From assembly GCF_055900595.2 (NCBI RefSeq), contig NZ_CM148325.1: a stretch of DNA of 64,000 nucleotides; one strand, 5' to 3'. Of this stretch, positions 9,783 to 49,599 are shown one piece after another. The notes beneath the pieces are model-generated. The model made no database searches. It saw nothing but the letters and a program-made list of their open reading frames with translations, and had not been told where the DNA came from. Each line of letters begins with the position of its first letter. Position 1 is the first letter of the stretch. A program made the translations under genes and the position numbers.

Positions 9783-10208
9783 TTGTTTGTGCGTGTTTTC
9801 TTCATACATGATTGGTAGTAAAGGTGATTCAGGCTATCAGTTTTTGCTGATGATCTTTTTATCTATAGAAAACATCAGCCAAGCTGGTTGGTTCAGTAAC
9901 GCTTTCATCTTTGAGCATTTTATAAAAAATTCTTGAATTGTTAAAATAGATTAAAGTCTGGTAACAGCAAAAGTTAAACGAGAAATCAAAAGGAGGTCCC
10001 AAATCTGAAAATGAAGCATCTGCGTGATGATGTTGCAGCGGGACGTCGTCGGCTGTATATCAGAGCAATCTGTCCATCCCTGCGTGAAGCCCCGTTACTT
10101 TATTCGTACCCCTTATAATGGGGTGTTAGCCAGCCAGACCCGGCATGATTACTGTGAACCGCCCCGGGAATCCTGGAGACTAAATTCCCTGAGAAAGAGG
10201 TAAACAGG

Positions 10209-10535
10209 ATGACTAAAAATACACGTTTTTCCCCCGAAGTCCGTCAACGGGCAGTTCGTATGGTTCTGGAAAGTCAGGACGAATATGACTCACAATGGGC
10301 GGCAATTTGTTCCATAGCTCCAAAGATTGGCTGTACGCCAGAGACTCTGCGTGTCTGGGTTCGCCAGCATGAGCGGGATACCGGGGGCGGTGATGGTGGG
10401 CTCACCACCGCTGAACGTCAGCGTCTGAAAGAGCTGGAACGTGAAAATCGTGAACTGCGCCGCAGTAACGATATCCTTCGCCAGGCTTCCGCTTATTTTG
10501 CGAAGGCGGAGTTCGACCGCCTCTGGAAAAAATAA
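10209..10535 (+). CDS. IS629 OrfA (108 aa)
   Basis: [23 protein letters not shown]... matches recalled IS629/IS1203 OrfA. Confidence 0.9.
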
Positions 10536-11335
10536 TGCCACTGCTGGATAAGCTGCGTGAGCAGTACGGGGTCGGACCGGTATGCAGTGAACAGCATATT
10601 GCCCCGTCAACGTATTACCATTGTCAGCAGCAGCGGCATCATCCTGATAAACGCAGTGCCCGTTGTCAGCGCGATGACTGGCTGAAGAGAGAGATACAGC
10701 GCGTATACGATGAAAATCATCAGGTGTACGGTGTGCGTAAAGTCTGGCGTCAGTTGTTACGGGAAGGAATCAGGGTGGCCAGATGTACAGTGGCGCGCCT
10801 CATGGCGGTTATGGGACTTGCCGGTGTTCTCCGGGGTAAAAAGGTCCGCACTACCGTCAGCCGGAAAACCGTTGCTGCAGGTGACCGCGTAAACCGTCAG
10901 TTCGTGGCAGAACGTCCTGACCAGCTGTGGGTGGCTGATTTTACTTACGTCAGCACATGGCAGGGCTTCGTCTATGTGGCGTTCATCATTGATGTGTTTG
11001 CCGGATACATCGTGGGGTGGTGGGTCTCATCGTCTATGGAAACGACATTCGTGCTGGATGCGCTGGAGCAGGCGTTGTGGGCCCGCCGTCCGTCCGGCAC
11101 CATCCATCACAGCGATAAAGGCTCTCAGTATGTGTCACTGGCCTATATGGAGCGATTAAAAGAAGCAAAACTGCTGGCATCAACAGGGAGTACAGGCGAC
11201 TCGTATGACAACGCGATGGCGGAGAGCATCAATGGTCTTTACAAAGCGGAGGTAATACACCGTAAGAGCTGGAAAAACCGTGCAGAAGTGGAACTGGCCA
11301 CACTCACGTGGGTGGACTGGTATAACAATCGATGA
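10535..11335 (+). CDS. IS629 OrfB transposase, shortened by a premature stop (266 aa versus about 296)
   Basis: Ends ...TWVDWYNNR then TGA; the expected C-terminus (LLGRLGHTPPAEAEKAYYASIGN) is readable just after the stop. Confidence 0.8.
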   Translation: MPLLDKLREQYGVGPVCSEQHIAPSTYYHCQQQRHHPDKRSARCQRDDWLKREIQRVYDENHQVYGVRKVWRQLLREGIRVARCTVARLMAVMGLAGVLRGKKVRTTVSRKTVAAGDRVNRQFVAERPDQLWVADFTYVSTWQGFVYVAFIIDVFAGYIVGWWVSSSMETTFVLDALEQALWARRPSGTIHHSDKGSQYVSLAYMERLKEAKLLASTGSTGDSYDNAMAESINGLYKAEVIHRKSWKNRAEVELATLTWVDWYNNR

Positions 11336-11985
11336 TTGCTGGGAAGGCTGGGCCATACTCCTCCGGCAGAAGCAGAAAAAGCTTATTATGCTTCCATCGG
11401 AAACAATGATCTGGCAGCCTGAGTTCACAGATAAAACACTCTCCAGGAAACCCGGGGAGGTTCAGTAATATCTGATCGTAACGGACGGACGCTGGAATTA
11501 ACCGATGACCGCAGCACAGAGAGTAGGGGATGCGGACGGTCAAAGATCGTGGAGTTGGATTTTATAAATCTGTCTCCAGTAGTAGATGAACTGAATACAA
11601 AGTTGCCAGAGAGTGGTCTGTCAGGCAGGGAATCAGAAACCGGATATTATTGACTGGTACATTGTGTCGGGCTGTGTACGTTCTCCCCGGACAGACAGTC
11701 TCAGTTCGTAGAATCTATAAATTACTGCTACTGATGCTGCCGGGGAAAGGTGTAACGAAAAAGCAGCCTCCGTTACCGGACAGCAAGAAGGCTGAATGAA
11801 GTTTATGGCGTTTGTATTTTGTAATGTCTGGCCATGCAGTAAATCCAGACAGGTTTTTATTATCATGTGAAGTATTCTGACATAAAATACTAAATTTCTA
11901 TTTTGTGATGAATGCTGCAAAATTGAATCTGCACTCTGATGTAACTTTTATCTGTTTCAGTGAAGCATGCCCACAGATTGAGTTA

Positions 11986-27146: not shown

Positions 27147-27827
27147 TCACAGGTTAAAGGTGTTGATAAGTTTATGGATGAAAGAGAAATGTGGCAGGGC
27201 GGAGATAAAACGCTCTTCAGCGACCAGACTGTGGATGTGGCCTCTCCGTTCAAACCGTTCTGATGTCAGGCTGACTGATTTGATATCTGCCAGAGGAAAG
27301 ACCTGCAGTTTTCCCTTCTGTAACGCGATCAGATACCAGCTACCGCTGTAATAAATGAGCCGGCAGGGCTCCAGTGACGGATACCATCGCTCAGCCATCA
27401 GAGAGATGTGGATACACTGTCTTATTGCCAGGATGAGTTGCGAGAAACACTCGGGGAACGTTGCAGTGATATCCGGCGCCGGTAGCCAGATAAGGCAGGG
27501 AGAGGGCTCCTGGTTGTCGGTAAGACAGGTTATCAGTCGTCCGTTCCGGAGCGGAAGTATCCGTGCGATCCCCGTATTCTGTATAAAAGAAAGCATTTCA
27601 GGGATCGCACCTGGGCTGCTCTGTCGTCTGAGGCTGTACCTGCCATTTCTGTACTCTAAATCCAGGTGAACCAGACGCTGATGAAAATCGCGCTGTAAAG
27701 TACGTTCTGTAACGCCAAATTCATCTGACAGTGTTTTTAGTGACAGAGATTCTCCGGCCATCAGTCGGCTGATAATGAGTGATAAGCGAACCGCCAGGCG
27801 ATCATGCCGGGAACGATTATCAGACAT
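27147..27827 (-). CDS. YfjR-like HTH transcriptional regulator (226 aa)
   Basis: N-terminal HTH (...SLKTLSDEFGVTERTLQRDF...) plus C-terminal WYL-like domain; position as in CP4-57 (recall). Confidence 0.7.
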   Translation of the reverse strand: MSDNRSRHDRLAVRLSLIISRLMAGESLSLKTLSDEFGVTERTLQRDFHQRLVHLDLEYRNGRYSLRRQSSPGAIPEMLSFIQNTGIARILPLRNGRLITCLTDNQEPSPCLIWLPAPDITATFPECFSQLILAIRQCIHISLMAERWYPSLEPCRLIYYSGSWYLIALQKGKLQVFPLADIKSVSLTSERFERRGHIHSLVAEERFISALPHFSFIHKLINTFNL

Positions 27828-28029
27828 AGATGTGCACTCCGTAAGAAAACATCTTTTATTTCATAATGTTATTATGCATCATGATGTTGAAAGGATGTGT
27901 CGCATCCGAATAATCAGGAATAAAATGCAGCAGAAAAAATATTCCTTTAATTATCTGATTTTTAAGCAGGGTTTCATAAAAAGAAGAATGCTTGTTAATC
28001 CAGCGACACATCCTGTCGGCGTGAGTGTG

Positions 28030-28914
28030 TCAGAACAGACGATCCCACAGTGTGACCAGCAGGTGGATAATGCGGTCCCGGGCTTTACGCAGAAGCTGTA
28101 ACATCCAGGCCGGAAAGCTGAACCGGGCAACGGCGTCGTCAAAGCTTTTCCCGATGGTTTCACCAAAAGTCTGTTGTGCGTGTTTCCGGGCCTGTTCAGA
28201 GCGGTTTTCCCCCCGGATATGTGAATAAACTGCGCTGGTTGCCTGTGGTGGCAGTGCGTGGATCATCAGCGACACAAACGCCGGAAGGTTCCAGCCGACA
28301 GATGCGGCAACGGAGAGTACCGGAAATGATGACGGGAACAGGGTGGCCACCCGGGCTGTTACTGTCGCCAGTGAGAGTTCCTGCTGACGGGACGGGCATT
28401 TTTCTGTGTCGTTCCATTCTTCAGCAGGAAACACGCGATCGGCATGGCTGAGAATAAACAGAAAGCGCGAGGGATCTGCGCCCTCATTCAGTAAAAACTG
28501 ATGCATGGCAATATCGGCAGCATACGCACGTTCATCAGCCCGCAGGATCCAGATAATCAGATCCAGTTCCGGTAGCAGCTGACGATAAAGTGTCCGGTAT
28601 TCCTGATCATGCTGCGGTGTTTCACCAATGCCGGGCAGATCGACCAGCGTCATTCTGCGTTCACCGAGCTGCAGAGTAAGACGATGAGCCTGGCGGGTGC
28701 AGCCGTTCAGGGGATGCGTGGCGCAGATACGGGACTGAAAAATGGCATTACACAGACTGCTTTTGCCGGTACCGGATTTACCCATAATGCCAATCACGGG
28801 CTCGTAATGAATAACATCGTGGAGATGTTCAAGGATTTTCTGGCGAATTTCTTCAGGAAGAAACGTCAGATATGATTTTACTTGTGCAGAGAGGGAAGAA
28901 TGGCTGAATGACAT
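28030..28914 (-). CDS. YfjP/YeeP/YkfA-family GTPase (294 aa)
   Basis: P-loop GIMGKSGTGKSSL and DLPG switch motif; recalled CP4-island GTPase family. Confidence 0.85.
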   Translation of the reverse strand: MSFSHSSLSAQVKSYLTFLPEEIRQKILEHLHDVIHYEPVIGIMGKSGTGKSSLCNAIFQSRICATHPLNGCTRQAHRLTLQLGERRMTLVDLPGIGETPQHDQEYRTLYRQLLPELDLIIWILRADERAYAADIAMHQFLLNEGADPSRFLFILSHADRVFPAEEWNDTEKCPSRQQELSLATVTARVATLFPSSFPVLSVAASVGWNLPAFVSLMIHALPPQATSAVYSHIRGENRSEQARKHAQQTFGETIGKSFDDAVARFSFPAWMLQLLRKARDRIIHLLVTLWDRLF

Positions 28915-29027: not shown

Positions 29028-29987
29028 ATGACAGGATTATCTGAGCAGGCAAAAGAACTTCATATGATGATGGGGCGGAGAAAACCGCCGAAGATACAGG
29101 CTGTTCTTAACACCCGATACTGGAAAAACACAGAAAAAACGATAAAAAGAACTGTAGGTATGAATATTCATACGCTCAGTCAGTGGTGTGGAGAACAATA
29201 TGAGAAGATGTTTATTTCAAAAGTGGCAGAAGTCTATATGCTCCACCATACGGCAGCAATATTGAGGCGTAAAGGAGTTTATGTGGATGTTTTTAAGATT
29301 CCCTCAAAAATAATGAACCCGCCTGAAGCGAGAGCCAATTGTACTGGTTGCCCTTCTTCTCAGAATGTCTCTCATTTTTTTGCTGATTCTGAGCCTAACA
29401 TCATAAATTTTTCTGAAAGTATAAGAATAAATTATTCATATACTCTAGTTCCAGCCTATATAAGGAAAAAAGTCTCATCTCTGATGGGGGATTCAGAACT
29501 TCGTTATGTGTATTCATTTCCCGGTAGTTTATATTCTTATCTTCTTGAGAAACATCCATTGTCAGAAGTTAAAAAACTGATGGAGGATTTGCCTTCAACG
29601 GAAGATGAAAACTTCAGGAGGAGTGAAACAGGTAGCCAGTATTTGAAGGGGATTCTCGGTGTAAAAACAAGAGTATCTGAACTTTTTATAAGGCAGTTTT
29701 CTTTGCCGTTTAGATTTCTCCACACTAAAGAATATGTAAGAGACGTCATATTTAAGCCTGTAGAAAATGATATGTCGTTAAGTGAAGAACTGGCCCATGT
29801 GTTATTTTTTACATTATTGCATTCGGATATAATGTCCAGGTTTAGTTTAAGAGAATTATTCTTCAGAATAGAAAGTGGACGTGATAATAATAAGAAAAGG
29901 GATCTTATACGCGAATATGTAAGCGATGTAACAAAAGAATATTCGTTATGTATACCTGGCATAGTCAGTCGGCACGATAAAAAATAG
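29028..29987 (+). CDS. Orphan hypothetical protein (319 aa), AT-rich
   Basis: Strong RBS ggaggtaataaATG; divergent from the GTPase gene; GC clearly lower than neighbours; no recognisable motif. Confidence 0.6.
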   Translation: MTGLSEQAKELHMMMGRRKPPKIQAVLNTRYWKNTEKTIKRTVGMNIHTLSQWCGEQYEKMFISKVAEVYMLHHTAAILRRKGVYVDVFKIPSKIMNPPEARANCTGCPSSQNVSHFFADSEPNIINFSESIRINYSYTLVPAYIRKKVSSLMGDSELRYVYSFPGSLYSYLLEKHPLSEVKKLMEDLPSTEDENFRRSETGSQYLKGILGVKTRVSELFIRQFSLPFRFLHTKEYVRDVIFKPVENDMSLSEELAHVLFFTLLHSDIMSRFSLRELFFRIESGRDNNKKRDLIREYVSDVTKEYSLCIPGIVSRHDKK

Positions 29988-30043
29988 TCAGTATCATCCC
30001 GTGCATATGATGTATGGTCGGGATGAAATGGTGAACGTGGTGG

Positions 30044-30847
30044 TTATTGTATCGCCCAGTATGCCCTGGTAATGAGTTCCTTTATGATTTCTGACTTACT
30101 TTTGTTTTCTTTCTGCGCGATAAAAAGAAGTTGCTGATACTGAAAATCCTTAAGACGAATATTTACCTGTTTATCTGTTCCTGAACTGACTGACATCTGT
30201 TGGTTATTCCGGGAGTGAATTCGCGCACGCGCTCGGCTCTTTCTTTTATAAAACGCTGCATTCATCTTTCTGAGTAACATGTTCTTTATCTCAATATCGT
30301 CGGCAGGGTTGTTTTCAATAAGACAGGTATCGAAAAAAGCATTAATGAGAAGCTTTCGTTCAGTATTATTCTGAGGCTGAATGTGTTGCAGGCCGCTCAG
30401 GGAAAATAATCGTTTTTTCTTAATGTAATTCCATGACCATTCTGTGTCATCAGTTCCCTCCCGAAAGTGTCGTGGAACGTGGATATTATCAAAGGTGAAT
30501 GCCCATTCATTTTCCATACGATAACAGAACTGAGCTATCTGATTTATATTAAAACGGGAGCGCATGAAGGATATCCAGTCACGTAATACCTTTTTCCTTT
30601 TTTCATGGGTGTCAGGGTATGAGGGAAAATGGTATTCACGATAGGGTATTGATTCGGGCGCAGAACCGCGCTGAAAAATCCCCATCTTCTTATAACTGGC
30701 TTTACTGATATAAAGCCATACCCAGAACACGACTCTTTTATTATTCAACCACCCGGTGCCACCCCGTTTTGCTGTGGTTGTTGTACCAGGAAAAATGACA
30801 AGAAATATTTCTGGTTTTATTAAATCGGAAATGCCATCTGCGCTCAT
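30044..30847 (-). CDS. Orphan hypothetical protein (267 aa) with C-terminal ribbon-helix-helix-like segment
   Basis: RBS ggaggtacaaacATG; AT-rich; C-terminus ...VNIRLKDFQYQQLLFIAQKENKSKSEIIKELITRAY resembles an RHH DNA-binding fold; convergent with the 319-aa gene. Confidence 0.6.
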   Translation of the reverse strand: MSADGISDLIKPEIFLVIFPGTTTTAKRGGTGWLNNKRVVFWVWLYISKASYKKMGIFQRGSAPESIPYREYHFPSYPDTHEKRKKVLRDWISFMRSRFNINQIAQFCYRMENEWAFTFDNIHVPRHFREGTDDTEWSWNYIKKKRLFSLSGLQHIQPQNNTERKLLINAFFDTCLIENNPADDIEIKNMLLRKMNAAFYKRKSRARARIHSRNNQQMSVSSGTDKQVNIRLKDFQYQQLLFIAQKENKSKSEIIKELITRAYWAIQ

Positions 30848-31889
30848 GTTTGTACCTCCATTAAATTATTAAATACTGACATTTTTATGATATGTCAGTC
30901 AATTAGTTTTGTGATATGCCCATGTCGTCTTAGAAGAACAATGACGAGTCTGTATTATGGGGGATTAAATACATGCCCTAAGATTGTAACATATAAAGTC
31001 ATGGAACTGGTCTTTATGGTGTATTATTGTTACATGTAGTTAACATTATGGGTTATGTTATGCCCTTCCTGTATGTCCGGAGGATGTTGCTGTTCTGTGT
31101 GTGTCAGCGAGTGGGAAGACTGGCAGGAAGACGGTATTGAGCAGGATAAAAGTATGCGATGTCTGAGCAAAGAAAAGTGTGTACGATGGGCGTCATTATC
31201 AGGATGTCGGGTAACCACGGAAGGTTATTCAAAAAGGAAATGATGGATTACAGATGCGCAATATCGGCGCGGTTTTTTGGCGCGATTTTGTTGATTTTTA
31301 TATATCAGCACCATCTGTGACGTTGTCACATGGTGATAATTTCCTGATGTGTGTCCTTTATAACTGACAATATTTCAATGAAGTATGAGAATAAACGGTA
31401 ATATGCAGGTGTCAGAAGAAATGTTTACGATGGCCATCTCTTGTCATTATTGACGGAAATCTGCCTGATGTTCATCTCTTTTATCCGACGGTCAGATTTA
31501 CAGGGAGGGGATTCGCCTGAAAGATATCAGGTAATGCAGCTACCATGATAAAAACAGGTATCACTTCCTTTCGGGAAAAATAAATGTCCCGGTCTTCTGC
31601 ATGAGAATGTTTGTCAGACAGAAATGTCGTCTGAATCAGTTTTTTATCGCTGCCTGTTCGTTCGGTAAAGAACAGGATTATCGCTTGTCTGACTTACCTG
31701 AATGAATATGCCAGAATGATGTTATACTCCCGTTGTGTTGTGGAAATTTTTCAGGTGAAAAACATCCCGACAGGGAAAATAATTCCAGAGTAAATTTGCT
31801 CCGTTTTCAGAACAAAAATCCCCATGCTGACCGTGAAAAACTGAAACCAACATTCAGTCTGTATGAGTGTCTGAGAATGTTGCTAATGT

Positions 31890-32100
31890 CGGTATGATAC
31901 TATATACACGTATTTTACTAAGTATTATATACACCTATTTCATTAAGTATTTTTACTAAGCATTTCAATAAGTGTTATATACGTATTTTCTACTAAGTGT
32001 TTTACCAGACATACACGTATTTTCATAAACACTTCTACAAGTGTTTTCATTAAGTATTGCTATACACATTGCTTTGTCTGATACACATCCAGTTTAGTAA
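31890..32100. repeat. Iteron-like array of imperfect direct repeats (about 22-25 bp period) in AT-rich non-coding DNA
   Basis: Recurring units containing atacacgtatttt, tactaagt(g)tt and cattaagtat at 31903, 31929, 31981, 32010, 32037, 32061 and 32082. Confidence 0.55.
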
Positions 32101-32943
32101 ATTTGTTAGTCCTGTTTTTACGATAGCTAAAATCAGTTAACGTCACTACAAAACTTTCTGTCCTGTTTAAGCAGTCAATGTGCTATTCGATTTTACTGAT
32201 GTTACATTTAACCTTTTCTTAGTTTTTGTGTTTTTAGTCGTTAACCTGAGACAAGTGTCTTTATGTAAAAATGCAAATCCGGCTGAGATAACCTGGCGTG
32301 ATTTACTGTGTGCTTACGATGATTTTGTTAAATGGTTTTATGGATGATTTTGTAACGATGAGATTGATGAGATGATTAACTGGTCCTGGTGTTTTTTCTC
32401 AGTGCAAGGTGATTATCTTCATCATAAGGCTCTTTTCAGAAAAGCGTGATGATTGGTTCTGGTGTTTTGATTCAGATGAGGTTTACGTTATCGATGGTTA
32501 ATCGTTTTTATGGTGCGTAGTGAAAAGTAACGTTTTCAGTATAAGAAAATCGATTCTGATGTTGGTGGTTTTTGTTCTTGGGGTGGGGTGTCTGTAAACA
32601 GGTTTTAAACGCGCTATTCGGCTCTGTGATTGAGTTTTGTGGTTAAGCTGTAGGTTTTGGTATTGTTGTTGATTCACAGCAGCAGAAAGCGTTCTGATTG
32701 CGTTTTTGGTGTTTTGTTTGCACGTTCTGTTGATCCGTTTCCCTTCGGGCTTTGTAGTTTTTAAAAACCATTTATGCCGTTGTTGTGTGTTTTACCCTGC
32801 GTGTAGGTTTATCTTTTCTTCGTGGGGGATTCATTCTGTTTTAATCAGGAGCCATTGGCGTTGCTCAATGGCGGGATGCCGTAAAGTTTTACCGCGGTGA
32901 TTAATGATGTGAAGTCAATCCAAATCAACGGAGATCTCTCATC

Positions 32944-33675
32944 ATGAATCAACCAATACACAATGCTTACTGGTTATCCCGTTTTGACAGCCTTCTCGAC
33001 AGTGCCCTGGTGCAGCACCGTGCCGTCTCGTTAATTCGGGTGGATTTACGTTTTCCTGAGTATATGCCTGCCACTATTATGGATACCGATTTAGATTCAG
33101 CAGTGATTTCTCGTTTTTTCGAATCCCTGAAAGCAAAAATTCAGGCTTACCAGCGGAAAAAACGACGTGCCAACAAGCGTGTGCATGCAACCACTCTGCG
33201 TTATTTCTGGTGTCGGGAGTTTGGCAAGGAAAAAGGCAGGAAACATTATCACGTGATATTACTGCTCAACAAAGATACCTGGTGCTCGCCAGGGGATTTC
33301 ACCGTTCCTTCTTCGCTGGCGACGCTGATCAAGCTGGCATGGTGTAGCGCTCTGCATCTTGAGCCCTGGCAGGGTAATGGACTGGTTCATTTTTCCAGGC
33401 GGGCGCCTTTCCGTAAACCGACATCATCTGATGCTCGCCCTTCTTCCGATGATACGCCTTTGTCGGGTGGATGTTCTGATACCCGGAAAGCTTCTGACAA
33501 AAAATCTGGTGGATCCGCTGTGCTCTGGGTCAAGCGTGGTGATGTGGAAGCGATGCAGAAAGCCATGGAGAGAGCCTGTTATCTCGTGAAGTATGAGACG
33601 AAGCAGCATGACGGTTCTGGTCAACGTAATTATGGTTGCAGTCGTGGGCCGGGGCGTTTACTGGATGGCAGGTGA
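32944..33675 (+). CDS. Rep-like HUH protein (inovirus Gp2 / YfjJ-YagK family), 243 aa
   Basis: HUH-type motif KHYHVILLLN; family recalled from CP4-type islands; conserved leader immediately upstream. Confidence 0.65.
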   Translation: MNQPIHNAYWLSRFDSLLDSALVQHRAVSLIRVDLRFPEYMPATIMDTDLDSAVISRFFESLKAKIQAYQRKKRRANKRVHATTLRYFWCREFGKEKGRKHYHVILLLNKDTWCSPGDFTVPSSLATLIKLAWCSALHLEPWQGNGLVHFSRRAPFRKPTSSDARPSSDDTPLSGGCSDTRKASDKKSGGSAVLWVKRGDVEAMQKAMERACYLVKYETKQHDGSGQRNYGCSRGPGRLLDGR

Positions 33676-34106
33676 GCCCTGTAAAACGGCATCCGGTGCC
33701 TGAGCATACGTCACGTAATTAACTGTCTTGACCAACAAAATTATGGAGTAACCTGATGGCAGGATTCATTACATTTCTTTGTTCTTTCTGAGTATCGCAT
33801 TCAGGATGGTCAGCAGTTTGCGCATACAGGCTACCAGCACCGCCGTAGTCATTACGCCGATGCCTTTAATGTTGCTCAGGTGCTCAGCTGGTTCTTTAAA
33901 ATGGTTCCGGATGTGGGTGTTCATCTTCCAGCGCTTTGATGATATTAATGTTTTTTTTGCTTTGCGGGTGAGCCGGGTACAACCTGTTTTGCTCAGTAAC
34001 TGGCATTGCGATCAACTGGTGTCTGCAAACGACTATGGCATTAAGAACCTGACGTTCTGCATCCGGCAAAGTCCGGATAAAGCGGTCTCGTTCCGGATGG
34101 TAATTA

Positions 34107-34262
<156 letters not shown>

Positions 34263-34442
34263 TCAACACAAAGGCCATATCGTGCTGCCTCAGTTCAGCG
34301 ATGATGAAATCAACGCCGTCAGCACCACTGGCAACAGAAAACCGTTCAATAGTGTTGCTGGCGGTAATATCCAGCGTTGTTTTGGACACATCGGTATCAA
34401 CACAAAGTGGATTTGGCAGACTCATTATTGCCCATTCTTGCT

Positions 34443-34485
<43 letters not shown>

Positions 34486-34858
34486 TGGCTCAGCGTATGC
34501 GCCATTTGCTTACATATGGGCTTAAACCCTAAGGGGCACCAGGCTGCATACGCTTTGCCAAATCTGTTCGCTGCTCATGATAACGAAGAACCAGGATACA
34601 AGGTGGAAGATCCTCAACGCTCAGGGGCGCAATGTTCCCTGTGTTTCATGCCCCCATCGTTTGTTGCTGTGGTGCCAGACTTCTGAGGCACCTCCATGTC
34701 GTTTTGCTTTTGTCAGCATCATAAATGCGTCGGGACTGGTGAATGGATACAAGTCATTTTATTATCGACGTCAGCGAACATACTCACTATGTCGGTATAT
34801 TTCTGAACTGAACAGTAAGTTTTGCGTTGATTACAGTATGCGAAGGAGGTCCATTACA

Positions 34859-36463
34859 ATGAATCCCGATTATGTGCAATCCTTGCAGACATCCCACCAC
34901 TTCCCAGCTGATTTAACCTACAGATTATTTCCTAGTGAGCTTGCGTATCTCATTGACGACTTATATGAAAGTACCCAACTTCCGTTGGAGCTCATTTTTA
35001 ATACTGTACTGGCAACGCTCTCACTCTCCTGTCAGTCATTGGTTGACGTTGTTCATCCTCACACCAACATGCCGGAACCCTGCTCACTTTATCTGTTGGC
35101 AATCGCAGAGCCAGGCGCGGGAAAAACAACGATAAACAGACTGGTGATGAACCCCTGTTACGAATTTGCCGATCGACTCATTCAACAATACGAAGAGAGA
35201 AACAAAGATTATAAGACTGAACTACAGATCTGGAATACCCGGCAGAAAGCGCTTGCTGCCAATTTAAGAAAGGTTGTTAACCGGGGGTATCCGGGGGAAC
35301 AGGAAGAAGAGGCGCTGCGTAATCACGAAAGAAATAAACCGACACGTCCGGTTCGACCGAATTTTATCTATGAAGATGTTTCGCTTAAAGCGCTTGTGGA
35401 AGGGCTCAATGAACATCCTGAGGCAGGGGTTATTTCTGATGAGGCGGTCACTTTTTTCAGAAGCTATCTGAAAAATTATCCGGGCCTGTTGAATAAAGCA
35501 TGGAGTGGGCAACCGTTTGATTTTGGACGGGCTGACGAGAAATACCATATCGCGCCACGTCTGACATTTTCGTTAATGTCTCAGCCGGATGTCTTTACGA
35601 ATTATATAAATAAAAATGACGTACTGGCGTGGGGAAGCGGATTTCTTTCCCGGTTTCTGTTCAGTCAGGTTGTAAGTTCTTCCTGGATACGTGATTATAC
35701 GAGAGGTGAGTTCAGAACAATATCAACCCTGGAGAACTTTCATAAAAAGATTAACGGATTCCTGTTAAACCACAACATTAATTTCCCCGGCATGAGCACC
35801 GAAAGGAAGACATTAAAACTTGCGAAGAAAGCGTTGGGGGAGTGGCAGGAAAACCAGATTAAGATTGAAAGAAAAGCGCTTGCAGGCGGGGAGTGGGAAC
35901 ACATCAGAGATATTGTTCTGAAAGCAGGCTCTAATATACTGAGGATAGCTGGAATATTCACCTGCTATTGCTATAAAGATGCTGAGGAAATTGAATCAAT
36001 TACGCTTTTTAAAGCTATGCATCTCATGGACTGGTATCTGGAGGAGGCGAGCACAATATTTTATCCCATGTCTGCACGATGCCAGTTTGAACAGGATGCC
36101 TGTGAACTGTATGCATGGATTATGACCCGAATAAGGCAGAATAATTGGCGTGCTATCAGGAAAACAGACATTGAAAGATATGGTCCCAATCGACTGAGAA
36201 GAGCAGAAAAACTTACACCTGTACTCAATCAGTTAATCTGTCAGGGGTATTTATGTATCATCAGAATGCGATCGCATCAGGCACTTTATGTTTCTGTTTA
36301 TTGTAACAATGGTTACCTCCTTCCTTTAGGCGCAATGTATTACGAACAGTTTGATATTGTTCTACCCGAGAATATTCATAAAGCGAAAGCATATCACGTT
36401 AATATTCCACCGGAATTAATTCCGTCATTTGCGTCACCTTTTTCAGAGTATAGCTTATTTTGA
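34859..36463 (+). CDS. DUF3987-type P-loop protein (YfjI-like, primase-associated family), about 534 aa
   Basis: Track ORF 34577..36463 trimmed to MNPDYV with strong RBS aaggaggt; Walker A-like AEPGAGKTT. Confidence 0.65.
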   Translation: MNPDYVQSLQTSHHFPADLTYRLFPSELAYLIDDLYESTQLPLELIFNTVLATLSLSCQSLVDVVHPHTNMPEPCSLYLLAIAEPGAGKTTINRLVMNPCYEFADRLIQQYEERNKDYKTELQIWNTRQKALAANLRKVVNRGYPGEQEEEALRNHERNKPTRPVRPNFIYEDVSLKALVEGLNEHPEAGVISDEAVTFFRSYLKNYPGLLNKAWSGQPFDFGRADEKYHIAPRLTFSLMSQPDVFTNYINKNDVLAWGSGFLSRFLFSQVVSSSWIRDYTRGEFRTISTLENFHKKINGFLLNHNINFPGMSTERKTLKLAKKALGEWQENQIKIERKALAGGEWEHIRDIVLKAGSNILRIAGIFTCYCYKDAEEIESITLFKAMHLMDWYLEEASTIFYPMSARCQFEQDACELYAWIMTRIRQNNWRAIRKTDIERYGPNRLRRAEKLTPVLNQLICQGYLCIIRMRSHQALYVSVYCNNGYLLPLGAMYYEQFDIVLPENIHKAKAYHVNIPPELIPSFASPFSEYSLF

Positions 36464-38027
36464 AATAACCTTACACAGATAAAACAAAATCAACCAACCT
36501 TCATTCGGAGGTTGGTGATAAGGCGTTTTGCATATCCTGCACCTATGCAAATGTTCACCAATTATGGGGGGTGAATGAGAATTTCTCTGAAAAAACCGCT
36601 ACGGTAGCAACAGTAGCAGCACATGCACCACATCTGTGATTTAATTTTGTTTTCATAATGACCTGCTGTCAGAGCTGGTTGAATACAGGAGTGTGCGCAC
36701 TGGTGGAAGCATGGCTTTCGTTTTTTTATTGATCGAAAGTGAATCGAAAGATTATTTTTAACATAGATTAAAGCTAATCATTAACCATATTGTGTGAGTT
36801 TTCATATATAACTTCGTTTGATTTTTGTCGTGATGAGTGCAGGTGTATATGATAATGTTGGTCTCTGCCTGAATAACGAATGGTTATCACTGTTACTGAA
36901 AAGAGATGCTGTTCAAGTTTGCATTTCAATAGGAGAGTGAAGAAAAATGATTTGATATTTTTTTCTGTAAGATAATGGTTTGTCATGTTCGTATTCAGAA
37001 CGGATGATTTCTTATTTTTACTCATCAAACATGGATAATTTTAATTTAGGTTTATTACTATAATTAGTATCTACCCCTTTATTTATCATCCATCTCTGCC
37101 CTTCATTTTCCCTCTCTGTCTTTACACATTCCATTACTCTTATTCTCATCCAGTTATATTCACTCCCTTCCTTGTCTAATCTGCATTGTCACCATTATCA
37201 TGGTATCCACCTTCTCCATTCCTCAATCATAACTACTGTAACTCATATGATACTCAGATAAGTTATTCTCTACTACGCTATTGCTGATATCCATCTGTTC
37301 CTGTTTTCAGTAAAATAATAATTTATTTTAATTTTATCTATCATGAGCTGTATTTGCTTAACAATGATTGTTTATCTGATATGTTTTAACCATTCCGGTA
37401 AATATCAATACTTCTGTCATCACTGATTAACTGAATGTTTACTCTTTGATAAGGTGTCCATGATTTCGTCATGTTTAACAGTGCAGGATAAACAATGAAA
37501 TTAACAGAGTGAATTCCTGATTATGTTTTTTTCGGGTTGTATTGTTTAAGATGCAGGGTAAAAATCATGCCAGTGGTATTTTTTACTCTGGTAATGTGTG
37601 CGGTTAACGTTCATGTCCTTAAGAACAGATTGGATGAGGGCGTATAAGTTTATTGTGTTGGCCTTGTATACGTTTTTTTTAGAACCACTGAGAGCAAGTT
37701 TGTAGTTTATGATGTTATTGGTCGTAATATGTTTCTTGAACTTCTGGTCGTGGGTTTTTATCGCGTGTTTTGCAGTATTTTGTGATGTTTATTGATTCTG
37801 TATTTTATTCGCTCCTCGTTTATCTCATCTCTTTAGCTAATACCATCAGATAATCCATTTATTTCTGCACAACGCTACGTGTCGTTAATAACCGACGTAT
37901 CCATTCTGTTACAGCATGCCTGATAAATACCGTCTGTAAGTTATTACCGTTTTAGATCTGATTATGAGCGAAAGCATTAATTCGTTTACAGCACTTAAAA
38001 CGTCATTAACTTTCAGGAGTCATCAGC

Positions 38028-38594
38028 ATGCCTAAATCTTACACACCAAACTGGTTTTTTACCGCTTTACTTGACAATCACATCAATCAAATGATGGCAC
38101 GCTATTCCTGCCTGCGGGCCTTACGCATGGATTTCTTCTACAGGAAAGATACGCCTGATTTCTTACAACCTGATCATCGCTGGCTTGAATTGCAGTTGCG
38201 TATGCTGCTGGAGCAGGTGGAACAATTTGAAAATATCGTTGGCTTCTTCTGGGTGATTGAATGGACGGCTGATCATGGTTTTCATGCGCATGCGGTTTTC
38301 TGGATCGATCGTCAGAGGGTTAAAAAAATATATCCCTTTGCGGAGCGGATTACGGAATGCTGGCGGTCTATTACGCATAACAGTGGTTCGGCACACCGCT
38401 GTACATATCAGCCGCATTATACATACAACATCAACATTCCTGTGCGCCACAACGATCCTGAAAGCATCGATAATATTCGCGGTGCCCTGCATTATCTGGC
38501 GAAAGAAGAACAAAAAGACGGGCTGTGTGCCTACGGCTGCAATGAAGTTCCTGAACGTCCTGCTGCAGGGCGTCCTCGTAAGCCTCACTTCTGA
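38028..38594 (+). CDS. Rep-like HUH protein (inovirus Gp2 / YfjJ family), 188 aa
   Basis: HUH-type motif HGFHAHAVFWID; same GT-rich leader architecture upstream as the 32944 gene. Confidence 0.6.
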   Translation: MPKSYTPNWFFTALLDNHINQMMARYSCLRALRMDFFYRKDTPDFLQPDHRWLELQLRMLLEQVEQFENIVGFFWVIEWTADHGFHAHAVFWIDRQRVKKIYPFAERITECWRSITHNSGSAHRCTYQPHYTYNINIPVRHNDPESIDNIRGALHYLAKEEQKDGLCAYGCNEVPERPAAGRPRKPHF

Positions 38595-38708: not shown

Positions 38709-39416
38709 GTGTTCTGTCCCTTATCTTCCCGTTCTGCTTCAGTTCTTCACTTATTCCATCAATCTCATCCGCAAGCCATAACACGTCAGCTCATTCACGG
38801 GCAGGACGCATTGTGGGCTGCGCATAACGGAACATATCTTATGAATGCTATTCCTTATTTCGACTATAGCCTGGCACCCTTCTGGCCATCTTATCAGAAC
38901 AAAGTCATCGGCGTCCTTGAGCGTGCGCTGCGTGAGCAGTCCGGCTCACGGATACGGCGGATCCTGCTTCGTCTGCCGTGGGAACATGACAACGCCTTCA
39001 ACAGCAGACAGACCTGGTTTGGTATGGATTTTATCGAAACCGTCAGTGCGCTGATGAATGCGAAACCCGGACGCGACCTTTGCTGGCTCCTGACCCGTCA
39101 TCCGGAAAAGCCGGAATACCACGTGGTGCTGTGCGTCAGACAGGAGTATTTCGACGGCCCCGAACTGGACCGGCTGATTCTGGATGCCTGGAGCAACGTA
39201 CTGGGCTTCGCGTCACCGGGGGAAGCGGCACCGTACCAGAAACAGATAACCCGGGATGTGGTGCTGGACAGTCGTTCACCGGACTGCGAAGACATCCTCA
39301 AAGATTTGATCTGGGCGTTCAGTGATTTCGCCCGCGATCGTCGTGGTGTGTGCGATCCGGAAGCCCGTTGCCTCGCCGGTAATCCCGGCTATCCCGGATC
39401 TGCAGGACCGTTCTGA
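38709..39416 (+). CDS. Hypothetical island protein (235 aa by track; true start uncertain)
   Basis: Track ORF upstream of alpA; the conserved leader motif precedes it but no ATG follows at the expected distance. Confidence 0.4.
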   Translation: MFCPLSSRSASVLHLFHQSHPQAITRQLIHGQDALWAAHNGTYLMNAIPYFDYSLAPFWPSYQNKVIGVLERALREQSGSRIRRILLRLPWEHDNAFNSRQTWFGMDFIETVSALMNAKPGRDLCWLLTRHPEKPEYHVVLCVRQEYFDGPELDRLILDAWSNVLGFASPGEAAPYQKQITRDVVLDSRSPDCEDILKDLIWAFSDFARDRRGVCDPEARCLAGNPGYPGSAGPF

Positions 39417-39484: not shown

Positions 39485-39721
39485 ATGTTGACCTCAATGA
39501 CAGGCCACGACTGCGTGTTGCTGCGTGCCGACGATCCCCTGATCGACATGAACTACATCACCAGTTTCACCGGTATGACAGATAAATGGTTTTACAAGCT
39601 GATCAGTGAAGGCCATTTCCCGAAACCCATCAAGCTGGGCCGCAGCAGCCGCTGGTACAAAAGTGAAGTGGAGCAGTGGATGCAGCAGCGAATTGAGGAA
39701 TCACGAGGAGCAGCAGCATGA
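39485..39721 (+). CDS. AlpA-family phage regulatory/excisionase-like protein
   Basis: ...MNYITSFTGMTDKWFYKLISEGHFPKPIKLGRSSRWYKSEVEQWMQQR fits the AlpA wHTH family; start may be the internal Met at 39548. Confidence 0.7.
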   Translation: MLTSMTGHDCVLLRADDPLIDMNYITSFTGMTDKWFYKLISEGHFPKPIKLGRSSRWYKSEVEQWMQQRIEESRGAAA

Positions 39722-39912: not shown

Positions 39913-40512
39913 GTGTCTGCACCGGCTGAACAAAATTCAACAGGGTTTGAAAAGGAACATTTCGTGCAAATAACCGAAGCATTAATTTCAGAGCCGGGAG
40001 ACATCCGGCGTTTTATTCAGCAGGCGGTGGACCACTGGCCGCATTTGCTGGCATTTTACTTCACACTCCATTCGGCAGAAGGAAATATCAACGGGCAACA
40101 GATTCATGCATTCTGTACTTCCTTTTACCGACAGGTGCACGAACGTATTACTGAGCGTAATCACACGGCCAGTCCATCATCGCCGGTGGTGTTACGCTGG
40201 TTGCGGGAACAACATGGAGGAGCAACAATTCGATGCCTGTTGCTGCTCAGCCAGACGAGTATTTGTCACCCGCGAGCCAGTGTCACAGTTGATGAACAAT
40301 GTTCGCAAATGGTGGATTTATTGCAACAGACATGGCGGGTGATAAGTGCTGACGGACAATGCCGGGTGGAAAGGTGTTTTCAGGCTGCCCGGGGTGATAC
40401 ATCCGGCCAGTATATTGCGTTAAAAACAGTTGCATTGTCTCTGGGGTTACCGGTTGTGACCGGTATTACCCATCGCCCGGTACAGCGCTGTACATTGATT
40501 ACAGCTCAGTGA
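39913..40512 (+). CDS. Hypothetical protein (199 aa)
   Basis: Track ORF downstream of alpA; family not recognised. Confidence 0.45.
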   Translation: MSAPAEQNSTGFEKEHFVQITEALISEPGDIRRFIQQAVDHWPHLLAFYFTLHSAEGNINGQQIHAFCTSFYRQVHERITERNHTASPSSPVVLRWLREQHGGATIRCLLLLSQTSICHPRASVTVDEQCSQMVDLLQQTWRVISADGQCRVERCFQAARGDTSGQYIALKTVALSLGLPVVTGITHRPVQRCTLITAQ

Positions 40513-47377: not shown

Positions 47378-48033
47378 TGTAGTCAATAAGGGTGTCATAT
47401 TCAACATGAAGATGTCTTCTGGGAATGTTTACATAGCAAATGCTTTCACTCCGGTAATTAATTTCCGTGATTAACTGCTTTCGATCAATAAAGGAATTGC
47501 AAAAGTGTGATCTTGCTCACGACATTGTGGATGATAATATGCCTGATGTCTGAATCCGGAAACAGTGCTCTGGCGGGTTTCATGTGAAGTTGACGGATAA
47601 AAAATCCTCACGACCAGACAGACGTGCGGTTTACGAAATTCGTAACAAGAGGCTTTTCTACGGATCACGTGGTGCGTGCCACGTGAAATTTTTGTAGCGC
47701 AAAATGTGCAATGTGTAAATACAAGGAAGGAAAAAGTTAAATTGGTGGAAGTCCATGCCTGCCACATGTACGTCTGCATTCCTCGTTTTGAACAGAATTC
47801 TCACCAGACATCGTGAATTTCTCATTCAATCTGCAAAATGGCATCTGAATCGATCGCAGTTTGGCATTCGAATCGATCATGATTTGGCATCCATCTCCGA
47901 TCACAGTTTGGCATCACAATCGATCACGATTTGGCATGCTTCCGATCATTGATTGGCATCCTGCCAGTCACTCCGGGAATTCACTCTTTTCACCACAGTC
48001 TCCATTGCCGTGTTTAAACCAGTGGAGACGTCA

Positions 48034-49599
48034 ATGTCCAGAAAGCGAAAATCCAGGAGCACTATGGAAACCTGTTTTAAGATCCTTCAGCTCAAGTTCG
48101 ACAAGAAGCTGACTAACCGTTGTATCGGACTGACGTTACACATCAGCGCCTCAACCGTTTTTGAGGTTATTGCCCGCTTCAAAGCCTCTTCTCTGCCATG
48201 GCCATTACCTGCTGATATATCCCATGACACGCTGGAGAAACTCATTTTTCCGCCCAAAGACACCTTTGCATCAGAGCTTGTAATGCCTGACATGTTGTAC
48301 TTCGATACGGAAATGAGAAAACCAGGTGTGACGCGGCAACTGCTGTGGATGGAATACAAGGCACAGGCAGGTGACAAAGCGATGGGATACTCGCACTTCT
48401 GCCTTTGCTACCGGGAGTGGAAAAAAACGCGACGTCTCTCCATGCGCCAGGAGCATCGTGCCGGCGAAAAGCTTTTTATCGACTTCTGTGGTCCTACTGT
48501 TCCTGTTATTAATCCGGACACCGGTGAGATACGCCGCGTGGCAATCTTCGTGGCCGTAATGGGGGCGTCCAAGTATACCTACGTTGAAGCGTGCGAAGGT
48601 CAGGACATGATGTCATGGTTAAATGCCCACAGCCGTTGCCTGACCTTCCTGGGCGGCGTACCGAAGCTGCTCATCCCCGATAACCTCAGAAGCGCAGTGA
48701 AAAAGACCGATCGCTATGAGCCTGTCATCAACGACAGTTATCAGGCACTGGCTGAGCACTATGGCACGGTTATCATCCCGGCCCGACCACGCAAACCTAA
48801 AGATAAACCAAAAGCAGAAAACGGCGTCCTCATCGTCGAACGATGGCTTCTTGCCCGCATCCGTAATGAAACCTTCCACACGCTCAGGGCGCTGAATGCG
48901 CGCCTTTGGGAGTTACTGACAGACATGAATAACCGGCCAATGAAGGGGTACGGCAATCAAACCCGTGCAGAACGCTTCCGCATACTGGATGCGCCAGCTC
49001 TCTCTCCGCTGCCTCTGACACCTTATGAATACACGGAATACAAAGCCGTGAAGGTTGGCCCTGACTACCACGTTGAATATGCCCGTCACTGGTACTCCGT
49101 TCCACACGAACTGGTCGGTCAGCGTCTGTCACTGAAAGCGGGGCAGTCGGTGGTACAGCTCTGGCACAAGGGGCAGTGTGTGGCACAACATCCGCGCAGC
49201 ACACATGAATATAAACACACAACCAATCCGCTTCACATGCCAGAGCGCCACCGGCAGCACGGGACATGGACACCGGAACGCCTTATCGGGCAGGGAAAAC
49301 GTACGGGCCCGTCCACAGGCCGGGTGGTTGAATCCATGCTGAAGGCAAAACCCCATCCGGAACTGGCTTATCGTGCAGTTCTGGGGCTGCTGGCACTTCA
49401 GAAAAAATACGGCCCGGAACGGCTGGAAAAGGCCTGTTACGTTGCCCTGCACTATAATGCCCCGGACAGACGCTTTATCGACAATCTGCTGCGTCACCAT
49501 CGGGAGAACCTGGAGCTTCCGTTATCCCGCCAGGGCGAACAACATCCGGCATATGCTTCAGAGCATGAAAACCTGTGTGGTCCGGGCTACTACCACTGA
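48034..49599 (+). CDS. istA: IS21-family transposase IstA
   Basis: Track ORF trimmed to MSRKRKS with GGAG RBS; HTH plus DDE-type integrase core. Confidence 0.85.
   Translation: MSRKRKSRSTMETCFKILQLKFDKKLTNRCIGLTLHISASTVFEVIARFKASSLPWPLPADISHDTLEKLIFPPKDTFASELVMPDMLYFDTEMRKPGVTRQLLWMEYKAQAGDKAMGYSHFCLCYREWKKTRRLSMRQEHRAGEKLFIDFCGPTVPVINPDTGEIRRVAIFVAVMGASKYTYVEACEGQDMMSWLNAHSRCLTFLGGVPKLLIPDNLRSAVKKTDRYEPVINDSYQALAEHYGTVIIPARPRKPKDKPKAENGVLIVERWLLARIRNETFHTLRALNARLWELLTDMNNRPMKGYGNQTRAERFRILDAPALSPLPLTPYEYTEYKAVKVGPDYHVEYARHWYSVPHELVGQRLSLKAGQSVVQLWHKGQCVAQHPRSTHEYKHTTNPLHMPERHRQHGTWTPERLIGQGKRTGPSTGRVVESMLKAKPHPELAYRAVLGLLALQKKYGPERLEKACYVALHYNAPDRRFIDNLLRHHRENLELPLSRQGEQHPAYASEHENLCGPGYYH

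Follow-up and report, generated by a model that had tools for sequence, protein, structure and literature searches.

In this study, a stretch of 64,000 nucleotides from NCBI RefSeq assembly GCF_055900595.2 (contig NZ_CM148325.1; hereafter the window) was investigated, with the focus on the non-coding DNA 5' of a gene for a small HUH nuclease of the YagK/YfjJ family, whose homologues carry the RefSeq name 'inovirus Gp2 family protein' (hereafter the Gp2-like protein). We observed that a TGTYGG-TAWTAT box accompanies the Gp2-like gene, in the same orientation, across Gammaproteobacteria, wherever alpA or yfjI sit, and that in the E. coli lineage the box directly precedes an array of direct repeats within a conserved non-coding module. 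An earlier note on this DNA, made from the letters alone, had proposed an iteron-like candidate replication origin here; what is new is the presence of the module in approximately 35% of complete E. coli genomes, the variation of the repeats by whole units, and the conservation of the box at distant loci. Taking the sequence evidence together with the analogy to known systems, we tentatively favour the view that box and array form a cis-acting DNA site of the neighbouring HUH enzyme, which would be bound and nicked for rolling-circle copying or for an oriT-like hand-over. A promoter and operator reading, which would not conflict with the first, is nearly as likely, because the box resembles an extended -10 promoter. 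The coordinates of all main features are collected in Table 1.

The conserved box, the repeat array and the leader

With reference to the whole family, the consensus of the box was TGTYGG-WWTRG-TAWTAT. Among 52 distant loci, whose encoded Gp2-like proteins are only 27-45% identical, it was detected in 28, on the strand of the gene and 100-600 bp upstream, giving 30 hits against 2.1 expected from the remainder of the same loci; its distance from the ATG at distant loci was 127-537 bp. The taxa bearing it include Kosakonia, Tatumella, Rosenbergiella, Limnobaculum, Budvicia and Providencia, as well as Proteus, Morganella, Serratia, Advenella, Hydrogenovibrio and Thiomicrorhabdus. Among the E. coli-type elements, which are 72-96% identical, the box is invariant. 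It stands directly 5' of the Gp2-like gene whether alpA lies upstream (loci L024, L027, L037 and L041) or downstream, and a box-like sequence was also noticed 90 bp 5' of K-12 yfjJ, in the yfjI-yfjJ gap of the alpA-yfjI-yfjJ row; none was found 5' of K-12 intA, the known AlpA-activated gene.

Direct repeats are indeed present where the earlier note had placed them. Tandem Repeats Finder (TRF) reported positions 31901-31982 with a period of 25, 3.3 copies, 77% matches and a score of 85; a repeat search returned 5 copies at 25-bp spacing together with sub-families, and within the 200-bp region 70 pairs of 10-mers differ at one position or none, against 4.1 +/- 3.3 (maximum 18) in dinucleotide shuffles. 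The period of 22-25 bp given before has to be revised, as the basic unit is a motif of approximately 14 nt, TTTYAYTAAGYRTT, recurring with a period of 12-13 bp and a super-period of 25 bp. All of its copies are on the + strand between 31912 and 32059, starting at 31912, 31937, 31950, 31962, 31987, 32020 (degenerate), 32033 (weak) and 32044, and TACAC(G)TA is interleaved with them at 31905, 31930, 31980, 32012, 32063 and 32082. A position matrix built from the copies reaches at least 15 bits nowhere else in the window on either strand, a result that is partly circular; the comparison of 10-mer pairs with shuffles is free of this circularity. The array DNA is AT-rich (27-32% GC) and, as the earlier note had also held, devoid of coding potential, with no open reading frame (ORF) of at least 40 aa inside it.

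Comparison of 51 distinct module versions, drawn from genomes and metagenomes, revealed 3-7 motif copies, array lengths of 104-225 bp and spacings of 12, 13, 24 or 25 bp. The copy number shifts by whole units, a core of units is kept in all 51 variants at a column identity of 0.84-0.95, and the first copy always begins 25-26 nt after TGTCGG. The invariant block that closes the array, ACACATCCAGTTTAGTAAA, pulled 103 stretches from metagenome contigs when used as an exact pattern. Tandem arrays were also enriched approximately eightfold in the non-coding DNA 5' of distant Gp2-like genes (20 against 2.4 expected, TRF), although these array figures and those of the box overstate independence, since several of the distant loci are mutually related. 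The distant arrays have other sequences and periods of 11-13, 17, 21-25 and 36 bp, several of them with an AGTATT-like core. A plain count of 9-mer repeats could not separate upstream regions from controls, owing to AT-rich noise, whereas TRF on non-coding DNA did. In Limnobaculum (L027/L182, 3034-3204), 4.4 copies of a 36-bp unit stand directly after the box and 5' of the Gp2-like gene, and each unit holds a perfect 12-bp inverted repeat (TTAGTATTAATA-A-TATTAATACTAA). To our eye, the sequences TAGTATTAA and TAATATTAA of that array resemble the nick nonamers TAGTATTAC/TAATATTAC of circular Rep-encoding single-stranded DNA viruses, a likeness which may be due to chance in AT-rich DNA.

The whole module, 1.17 kb from approximately 31773 to the ATG, was found in 1,877 of the 5,426 complete E. 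coli genomes, with mostly 72-93% identity and a median of two copies per genome. Its left boundary is sharp: nearly all of the BLAST matches listed start at query positions 22-27, with H36 starting from position 1, and left of the boundary three unrelated contexts were observed in different E. coli elements. Across the 51 versions, the flanking blocks, the core repeat units and several leader blocks are 0.84-1.0 identical. Between the module's left edge and a minus-strand hypothetical gene (30044-30847) lie approximately 920 bp (30847-31773) that differ wholly among elements, with a longest ORF of at most 62 aa and a G-over-C skew of +0.4 at 31000-31300.

The GT-rich leader reported before the gene with the HYHVILL motif was recovered as approximately 840 nt (32100-32940) composed of 40% T, 24% G, 22% A and 14% C, followed by the gene at 32944-33675. 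From about 90 nt before the end of the leader to nucleotide 46 of the gene the sequence is nearly invariant, and a predicted RNA hairpin, in which AUGAUGUGA pairs with UCUCAUCAU, occludes GGAG and AUG (-35.8 kcal/mol; z = -3.3 against shuffles). Apart from this hairpin over the Shine-Dalgarno (SD) sequence and AUG, a structured leader RNA was rejected on the RNAalifold result, as the energies for 26 non-redundant homologues were weak and the z-scores of neither strand were consistent; a search of 30800-33000 against Rfam gave no match even at E <= 1. Hidden + strand small genes were discarded because indels that are not multiples of three break their ORFs. The open frames on the minus strand were regarded as an artefact of a CA-rich strand, and the short 'hypothetical proteins' that RefSeq places on the minus strand of 32590-32770 in some genomes (e.g. 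L002 20714-20887) look like artefacts too, because that strand has few stop codons and at least two frames are open at once. The GT-rich composition was likewise rejected as a family trait; the leaders of distant loci are neutral or C-rich, and the skew is confined to the E. coli lineage. Some E. coli elements (L004 4660-5990 and L005 4647-5977, corresponding to about window position 32481) carry a 531-bp minus-strand gene of unknown function in the most conserved block of the leader, with the Gp2 gene still present downstream.

The Gp2-like protein and the possible roles of the site

The identification of a Rep-like HUH protein was well founded. Residues 24-233 of the Gp2-like protein match PF11726 (YagK_YfjJ_C) at E = 1.6e-36, PF23343 (REP_ORF2-G2P) is matched at 3e-7, the PHROG matches are to replication-initiation families, and weak tblastn matches to Microviridae VP4 were obtained. 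The AlphaFold2 model (predicted local distance difference test, pLDDT, 79) predicts the HUH alpha/beta nuclease fold, its nearest folds being the nuclease/origin-binding domains of parvovirus NS1 and adeno-associated virus (AAV) Rep, followed by other HUH enzymes; a sequence search of solved structures gave nothing at E <= 1. Profile searching yielded approximately 1,414 family clusters at 50% identity, mostly of 190-250 aa, extending across Gammaproteobacteria and beyond. In 143 family representatives the HUH motif H101-Y-H103 and the YxxK motif Y213-L-V-K216 are preserved (H101 100%, H103 99%, Y213 98%, K216 98%), while a second tyrosine is not conserved. Conservation of this order shows that the family consists of small HUH enzymes, limited to the nuclease domain and selected for catalysis, with strong purifying selection on the histidines and the tyrosine. 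The earlier note had named unconserved repeats or missing catalytic residues as what would speak against its proposal; the repeats are conserved and the catalytic residues are 98-100% conserved, and the proposal is therefore not refuted on these counts.

Residues ~151-192 (33394-33519) form a Ser/Asp/Pro-rich, low-complexity insert of approximately 41 aa that is missing in distant homologues and has a pLDDT below 50. That the Gp2-like gene might by itself be the replicon of a plasmid or phage was also considered and rejected, the plasmid matches being the same island backbone on large plasmids. The one phage match of note is OR844780.1 (L012, 'Escherichia phage ECO111 5-P', 4.5 kb), with a gene for a Gp2-like protein of 42% identity; since this record is flagged as unverified, of low coverage and unannotated, it probably derives from a host island and not from a phage. 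Gp2-like genes have been described as core genes of transducible Pseudomonas islands.

HUH enzymes need a specific DNA site, normally beside their gene, and tandem repeats are bound by parvovirus NS1, AAV Rep, geminivirus Rep and pMV158 RepB. In the HUH origins of pMV158, parvoviruses and geminiviruses, which include the nearest folds named above, direct repeats stand at a set distance behind a short conserved sequence, and the box with its array fits this layout of a nick site plus binding repeats, as in rolling-circle origins or oriT sites; it is therefore the reading as a cis site of the HUH enzyme that we prefer. Excision of the island, driven by AlpA and the integrase, would come first, after which the Gp2-like protein would bind the direct repeats through its nuclease/origin-binding domain and nick the + strand in or beside the box (TGTCGG/TATGATACTAT). 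The 3'-OH could then prime rolling-circle copying of the circle, the box serving as a double-strand origin, or alternatively the nicked strand may be handed to the transfer or packaging machinery of a helper, so that the site would act like an oriT; help would come from host helicases and from the helicase/primase-like DUF3987 protein. Transcription of the gene, through the long, C-poor leader that ends in the hairpin over the start codon, is probably driven from this site too and would be auto-limited by the bound protein. Related satellites with AlpA and a DUF3987 primase, such as PICMI, are reported to replicate as rolling circles after excision, which in PICMI is AlpA-dependent (PMC10803314).

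Several observations weigh against the cis-site reading. No conserved hairpin that would present the nick site and no fold like a single-strand origin was found, DNA folding against shuffles giving z = -0.06 for 31840-31960 and z = +0.79 and -1.31 for leader segments, though a hairpin is not needed by all HUH origins. Many box-bearing loci have no array, e.g. the Klebsiella plasmid copy, and in Providencia and Proteus the array lies approximately 240 bp upstream of the box instead of after it. A plain promoter would account for the TAnnnT hexamer that the box contains at a constant offset, in many cases together with TGn. Arrays of direct repeats beside promoters are a common mark of Xis/Cox/AlpA-type proteins as well (lambda Xis, P2 Cox), many such islands are regarded as immobile remnants, and the searchable literature holds no binding, nicking or replication data for any family member, nor any report of site-specific single-strand cleavage through a covalent 5'-phosphotyrosine intermediate. 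The candidate origin of the earlier note is partly supported: the layout fits the design of an HUH origin or oriT, but the promoter and operator reading is nearly its equal, and neither hairpin nor single-strand origin was found.

A purely transcriptional account, which we regard as possible, would take the box as an extended -10 promoter of the Gp2(-AlpA) unit and the repeats as operators, bound by an AlpA/Xis-like protein, the WYL regulator, or the Gp2-like protein as a mere autorepressor, with the substrate of the HUH enzyme lying elsewhere. Judged by its sequence, the box does have the form of an extended -10 promoter: TAWTAT stands at a fixed offset from TGTYGG and is preceded by TGn in many loci (TGGTAATAT, TGATACTAT, TGGTATAGT). 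It is always co-oriented with and upstream of the gene, it sits between the divergent GTPase-WYL-antirestriction operon and the Gp2-to-AlpA side, tandem direct repeats are bound by Xis- and Cox-type proteins, and the invariant hairpin over SD and AUG implies a transcribed, regulated leader. However, TGTYGG is strictly conserved at a position where sigma-70 promoters are unconstrained in sequence, no conserved -35 accompanies it, and the box keeps to the Gp2-like gene even where alpA, yfjI and yfjJ form an apparent operon, and also at loci that lack a detectable AlpA in the vicinity; moreover, a catalytically conserved HUH enzyme still needs a cis site, for which no other conserved candidate was seen. 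The Rep-binding iterons of geminiviruses lie in the Rep promoter, a precedent for origin and promoter in one site.

That the repeats have no specific function, being AT-rich DNA prone to slippage, in a spacer that was acquired horizontally and is silenced by H-NS, and conserved only through the recent kinship of the elements, seems improbable. Unstable copy number, AT-richness and the high identity among E. coli-type elements agree with this, but a core of units occurs in all 51 variants, the spacing from box to array is fixed, and in other orders and classes both arrays and box are again present 5' of genes whose products share only 30-40% identity. A role at the RNA level strikes us as very improbable. 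Here the repeats would form the 5' end of a leader of approximately 1 kb, with 7-8 UUUYAYUAAGYRUU elements bound by a ProQ/FinO-family protein or Hfq to control its stability or read-through. All copies do lie on the sense strand just 3' of the promoter-like box, a ProQ/FinO gene occurs in related islands, and the C-poor, G-rich leader, the opposite of a Rho loading site, may be a poor Rho substrate, as would suit a long untranslated transcript escaping Rho. Against this stand the lack of a conserved RNA structure or Rfam family match in the leader, the arrays of Providencia and Proteus, which are upstream of the box and hence not transcribed from it, the restriction of the GT skew to one lineage, and the frameshift in the ProQ/FinO gene of the homologues examined.

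An iteron origin in the plasmid sense, as the wording of the earlier note suggested, we consider hardly credible. In theta origins such as those of pSC101, R6K, P1 and RK2, iterons of 17-22 bp are phased at about two helical turns, and the initiator that fills them opens an adjacent AT-rich element together with DnaA and brings in DnaB; the window shares with them direct repeats of varying copy number in AT-rich DNA adjoining an initiator-like gene. Nevertheless, the initiator here is an HUH nuclease and not a winged-helix protein of the RepA/Rep_3/pi type, the units of approximately 14 nt at 12-13/25 bp are not helically phased like 22-bp iterons, and no DnaA box with at most one mismatch was found within 29724-32638. 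The suggested comparison with P4-like elements gave no cluster of P4-type iterons either: the type-I sequence TGTTCACC has five exact copies in the window, scattered and unclustered (one stands alone at 36552), and a P4-type origin with iteron clusters, ori/crr and the alpha primase-helicase was rejected on this ground.

Compared with other known systems, the double-strand origins of rolling-circle plasmids (the nic and bind loci of pMV158 RepB; pC194/pUB110 type) differ in their nick hairpin and single-strand origin, neither of which was found here, and in that the present site belongs to an integrated island of the 50-kb class with the gene approximately 1 kb from the candidate site. The parvovirus NS1 and AAV Rep origins have tandem ACCA or GCTC repeats beside the nick site, but their proteins carry an SF3 helicase whereas the present enzymes are nuclease-only and approximately 200 aa long; there is no sequence similarity, and the replicon biology differs. 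The initiators of single-stranded DNA phages (Inovirus gpII/Pf3-type G2P and Microviridae gpA/VP4) are similar by the REP_ORF2-G2P, PHROG and weak VP4 matches, and we take motif 3, YLVKYETK, to resemble YVAKYVNK of phiX174 gpA; they differ in the second tyrosine, which is unconserved here, phage structural genes are absent, and their origin sequence is not demonstrably related. The lambda Xis sites X1-X1.5-X2, the P2 Cox boxes and P4 Vis sites are likewise direct repeats at about one-turn spacing over a promoter, and serve as binding sites for small winged-helix proteins of the AlpA/Xis type, one of which is also encoded by the island; in contrast to these, box and array follow the Gp2-like gene and not alpA, and no att site or integrase gene is nearby. 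ICEBs1 (NicK/oriT), phage-inducible chromosomal islands (PICI), P4 and PICMI share an integrase-type island backbone, AlpA and a DUF3987 primase/helicase-like gene, but their replication proteins are not Gp2-like HUH enzymes, and we identified no gene of the capsid, packaging or relaxase type in the present island. Finally, the AlpA binding element of P. aeruginosa, GGGACG between -35 and -10, is also a short conserved G-rich element just 5' of a -10 hexamer and followed by a long leader. It was rejected as a model of the box, since the P. aeruginosa AlpA is larger (its DNA-contact residues reach H142) and 21Q-like in structure, the sequence is different and the likeness is positional only; in our judgement the protein is unrelated to the 78-aa PF05930 AlpA of the window.

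Island context and neighbouring features

The window represents an E. coli-type genomic island of the CP4-57 / pheV pathogenicity island (PAI) kind, and positions 31769-34000 match many E. coli chromosomes at approximately 95%. In annotated, near-identical E. coli loci the neighbours on one strand are CbtA/CbeA, RadC, an antirestriction protein, DUF932, a WYL regulator and a YfjP-like GTPase, and the order on the other strand is the 'inovirus Gp2 family protein', an IS110 remnant, YfjI, further YagK/YfjJ proteins and an AlpA-type regulator; the gene set of the window is the same. The backbone synteny of CP4-57/PAI-type islands (GTPase, WYL, DUF932, antirestriction, RadC and CbtA/CbeA, with AlpA, YfjI and YfjJ-type genes) is thus present, as compared with these loci, K-12 CP4-57 and the Providencia, Limnobaculum and Klebsiella versions. 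No tRNA gene was detected in the 64-kb window. The divergent layout of the GTPase-WYL side and the Gp2 side also occurs in Providencia and Limnobaculum chromosomes and in one Klebsiella plasmid; this arrangement, an intergenic region from which the GTPase-WYL-antirestriction operon and the genes from Gp2 to AlpA diverge, is the ancestral one.

Table 1. Features of the island region, with window coordinates and strand
Feature	Position	Strand	Basis or remark
WYL regulator and YfjP-like GTPase	27147..28914	-	first genes of the island backbone operon, divergent from the Gp2 side; WYL at 27147-27827
Sharp left boundary of the module, AAAATAATTCCAGAGTAAAT	31773..31795		BLAST start points; alignment of 10 elements
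Terminator-like hairpin at module edge	31795..31816	-	consensus scan: 9-pair stem, then T-run
Box TGTCGG-TATGA-TACTAT	31887..31903	+	directly 5' of array; candidate HUH nick/recognition site and/or extended -10 (TGaTACTAT)
Direct-repeat array	31905..32062	+	7-8 copies of TTTYAYTAAGYRTT interleaved with TACACGTA; spacing 12-13 or 24-25 bp
Invariant block ACACATCCAGTTTAGTAAA closing the array	32083..32101	+	identical in 10/10 E. coli elements
G+T-rich, C-poor non-coding leader	32102..32867	+	conserved blocks, e.g. 32453-32520, 32593-32612, 32633-32712
Nearly invariant segment over ribosome-binding site and start codon	32868..32985	+	column identity 0.93-1.0
YagK/YfjJ ('inovirus Gp2 family') HUH-only protein, 243 aa	32944..33675	+	Motif I IRVDLRFP; HUH HYHVILLLN; Tyr YLVKYETK
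IS110-family transposase remnant	33720..34430	-	annotation of near-identical E. coli loci; downstream alignment
YfjI-family DUF3987 protein (helicase/primase-like)	34859..36463	+	PF13148 9e-74; PHROG DNA helicase 3.7e-42; length annotated in homologues
Second YagK/YfjJ paralogue	38028..38594	+	H-A-H and YLAK retained (alignment); annotated in homologues
Degenerate YagK/YfjJ-like paralogue	38709..39416	+	HUH first His and Tyr both lost (alignment)
AlpA-family excisionase-type regulator	39485..39721	+	PF05930 2.6e-10; PHROG 'excisionase and transcriptional regulator'

The DUF3987 and AlpA proteins that the earlier note had seen following the Gp2-like gene are both present, as the profile matches in Table 1 indicate, but they are not adjacent to it; the IS110 remnant separates Gp2 from the DUF3987 gene, and AlpA comes 5.8 kb further on, after two more YagK/YfjJ paralogues. 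Another paralogous ORF, the third further one (39913-40512), has lost the motifs in the alignment. In other elements a terminator hairpin (AAGGGCGT...ACGCCCTT and a T-run) is found 3' of Gp2, and in the window the IS110 remnant occupies its place, so that the Gp2 unit here is truncated on its 3' side. The true start of yfjI is likely the ATG at 34859, after GAAGGAGG. A second TGTCGGTATAT was noticed at 34790-34800, 69 bp 5' of this start, with an offset to a -10-like hexamer unlike that of the main box.

A second AT-rich non-coding gap of approximately 1.56 kb separates yfjI from the second YagK/YfjJ paralogue (36463-38028), and E. coli homologues have an equally long one (L001 16722-18319). 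It is pyrimidine-rich at 37000-37300 (GC skew about -0.6) and then G+T-rich at 37500-37800, and no tandem array or box was detected in it; homology of the leader to this gap was rejected, as matches were at chance level only. Further away, at 47839-47960, approximately four tandem copies of a 23-bp unit (TGGCATC..GATCGATCAC) stand just 5' of a 548-aa ORF (47953-49599), whose N-terminus, judged by eye, resembles an IS21-family transposase; if the ORF is of that type, the repeats are probably the multi-repeat terminal region of the element. The window also has four Rfam matches above the gathering score, namely the Hfq-binding RNA STnc490, two ALIL pseudoknots, which we take to be frameshift signals of IS3-family elements, and the antisense RNA AS-pc02, at positions 9870-9992, 10490-10606, 11657-11835 and 59647-59710.

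Meaning for CP4-57/PAI-type islands

CP4-57 / pheV-PAI islands, which E. coli genomes harbour very frequently, carry capsule, adhesin, iron-uptake, toxin-antitoxin and defence cargo, and little is understood so far of their movement or persistence once excised. Their YagK/YfjJ proteins are annotated, but we found no functional study of YagK/YfjJ/Gp2-like island proteins in the literature, and no paper containing the box sequence. The present data describe this family as catalytically conserved HUH nucleases with a short conserved box and, in E. coli, a conserved non-coding module of 1.17 kb, and the origin hypothesis has become sharply testable. Going further, the TGTYGG-TAWTAT box, together with the array in the E. 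coli lineage, may conceivably be the nick site of previously unrecognised HUH-only initiators or relaxases of approximately 200 aa, which would drive rolling-circle replication or single-strand transfer of CP4-57/PAI-type elements after AlpA-triggered excision; we hold this more specific proposal to be rather unlikely. If it is true, it would concern the module-bearing elements in about a third of E. coli genomes and a family of approximately 1,400 clusters. If the box is a cis site, it could reveal a replication or transfer origin of these islands, and if it is only a promoter and operator, it would still be a widely conserved regulatory switch of the Gp2-AlpA module of the island.

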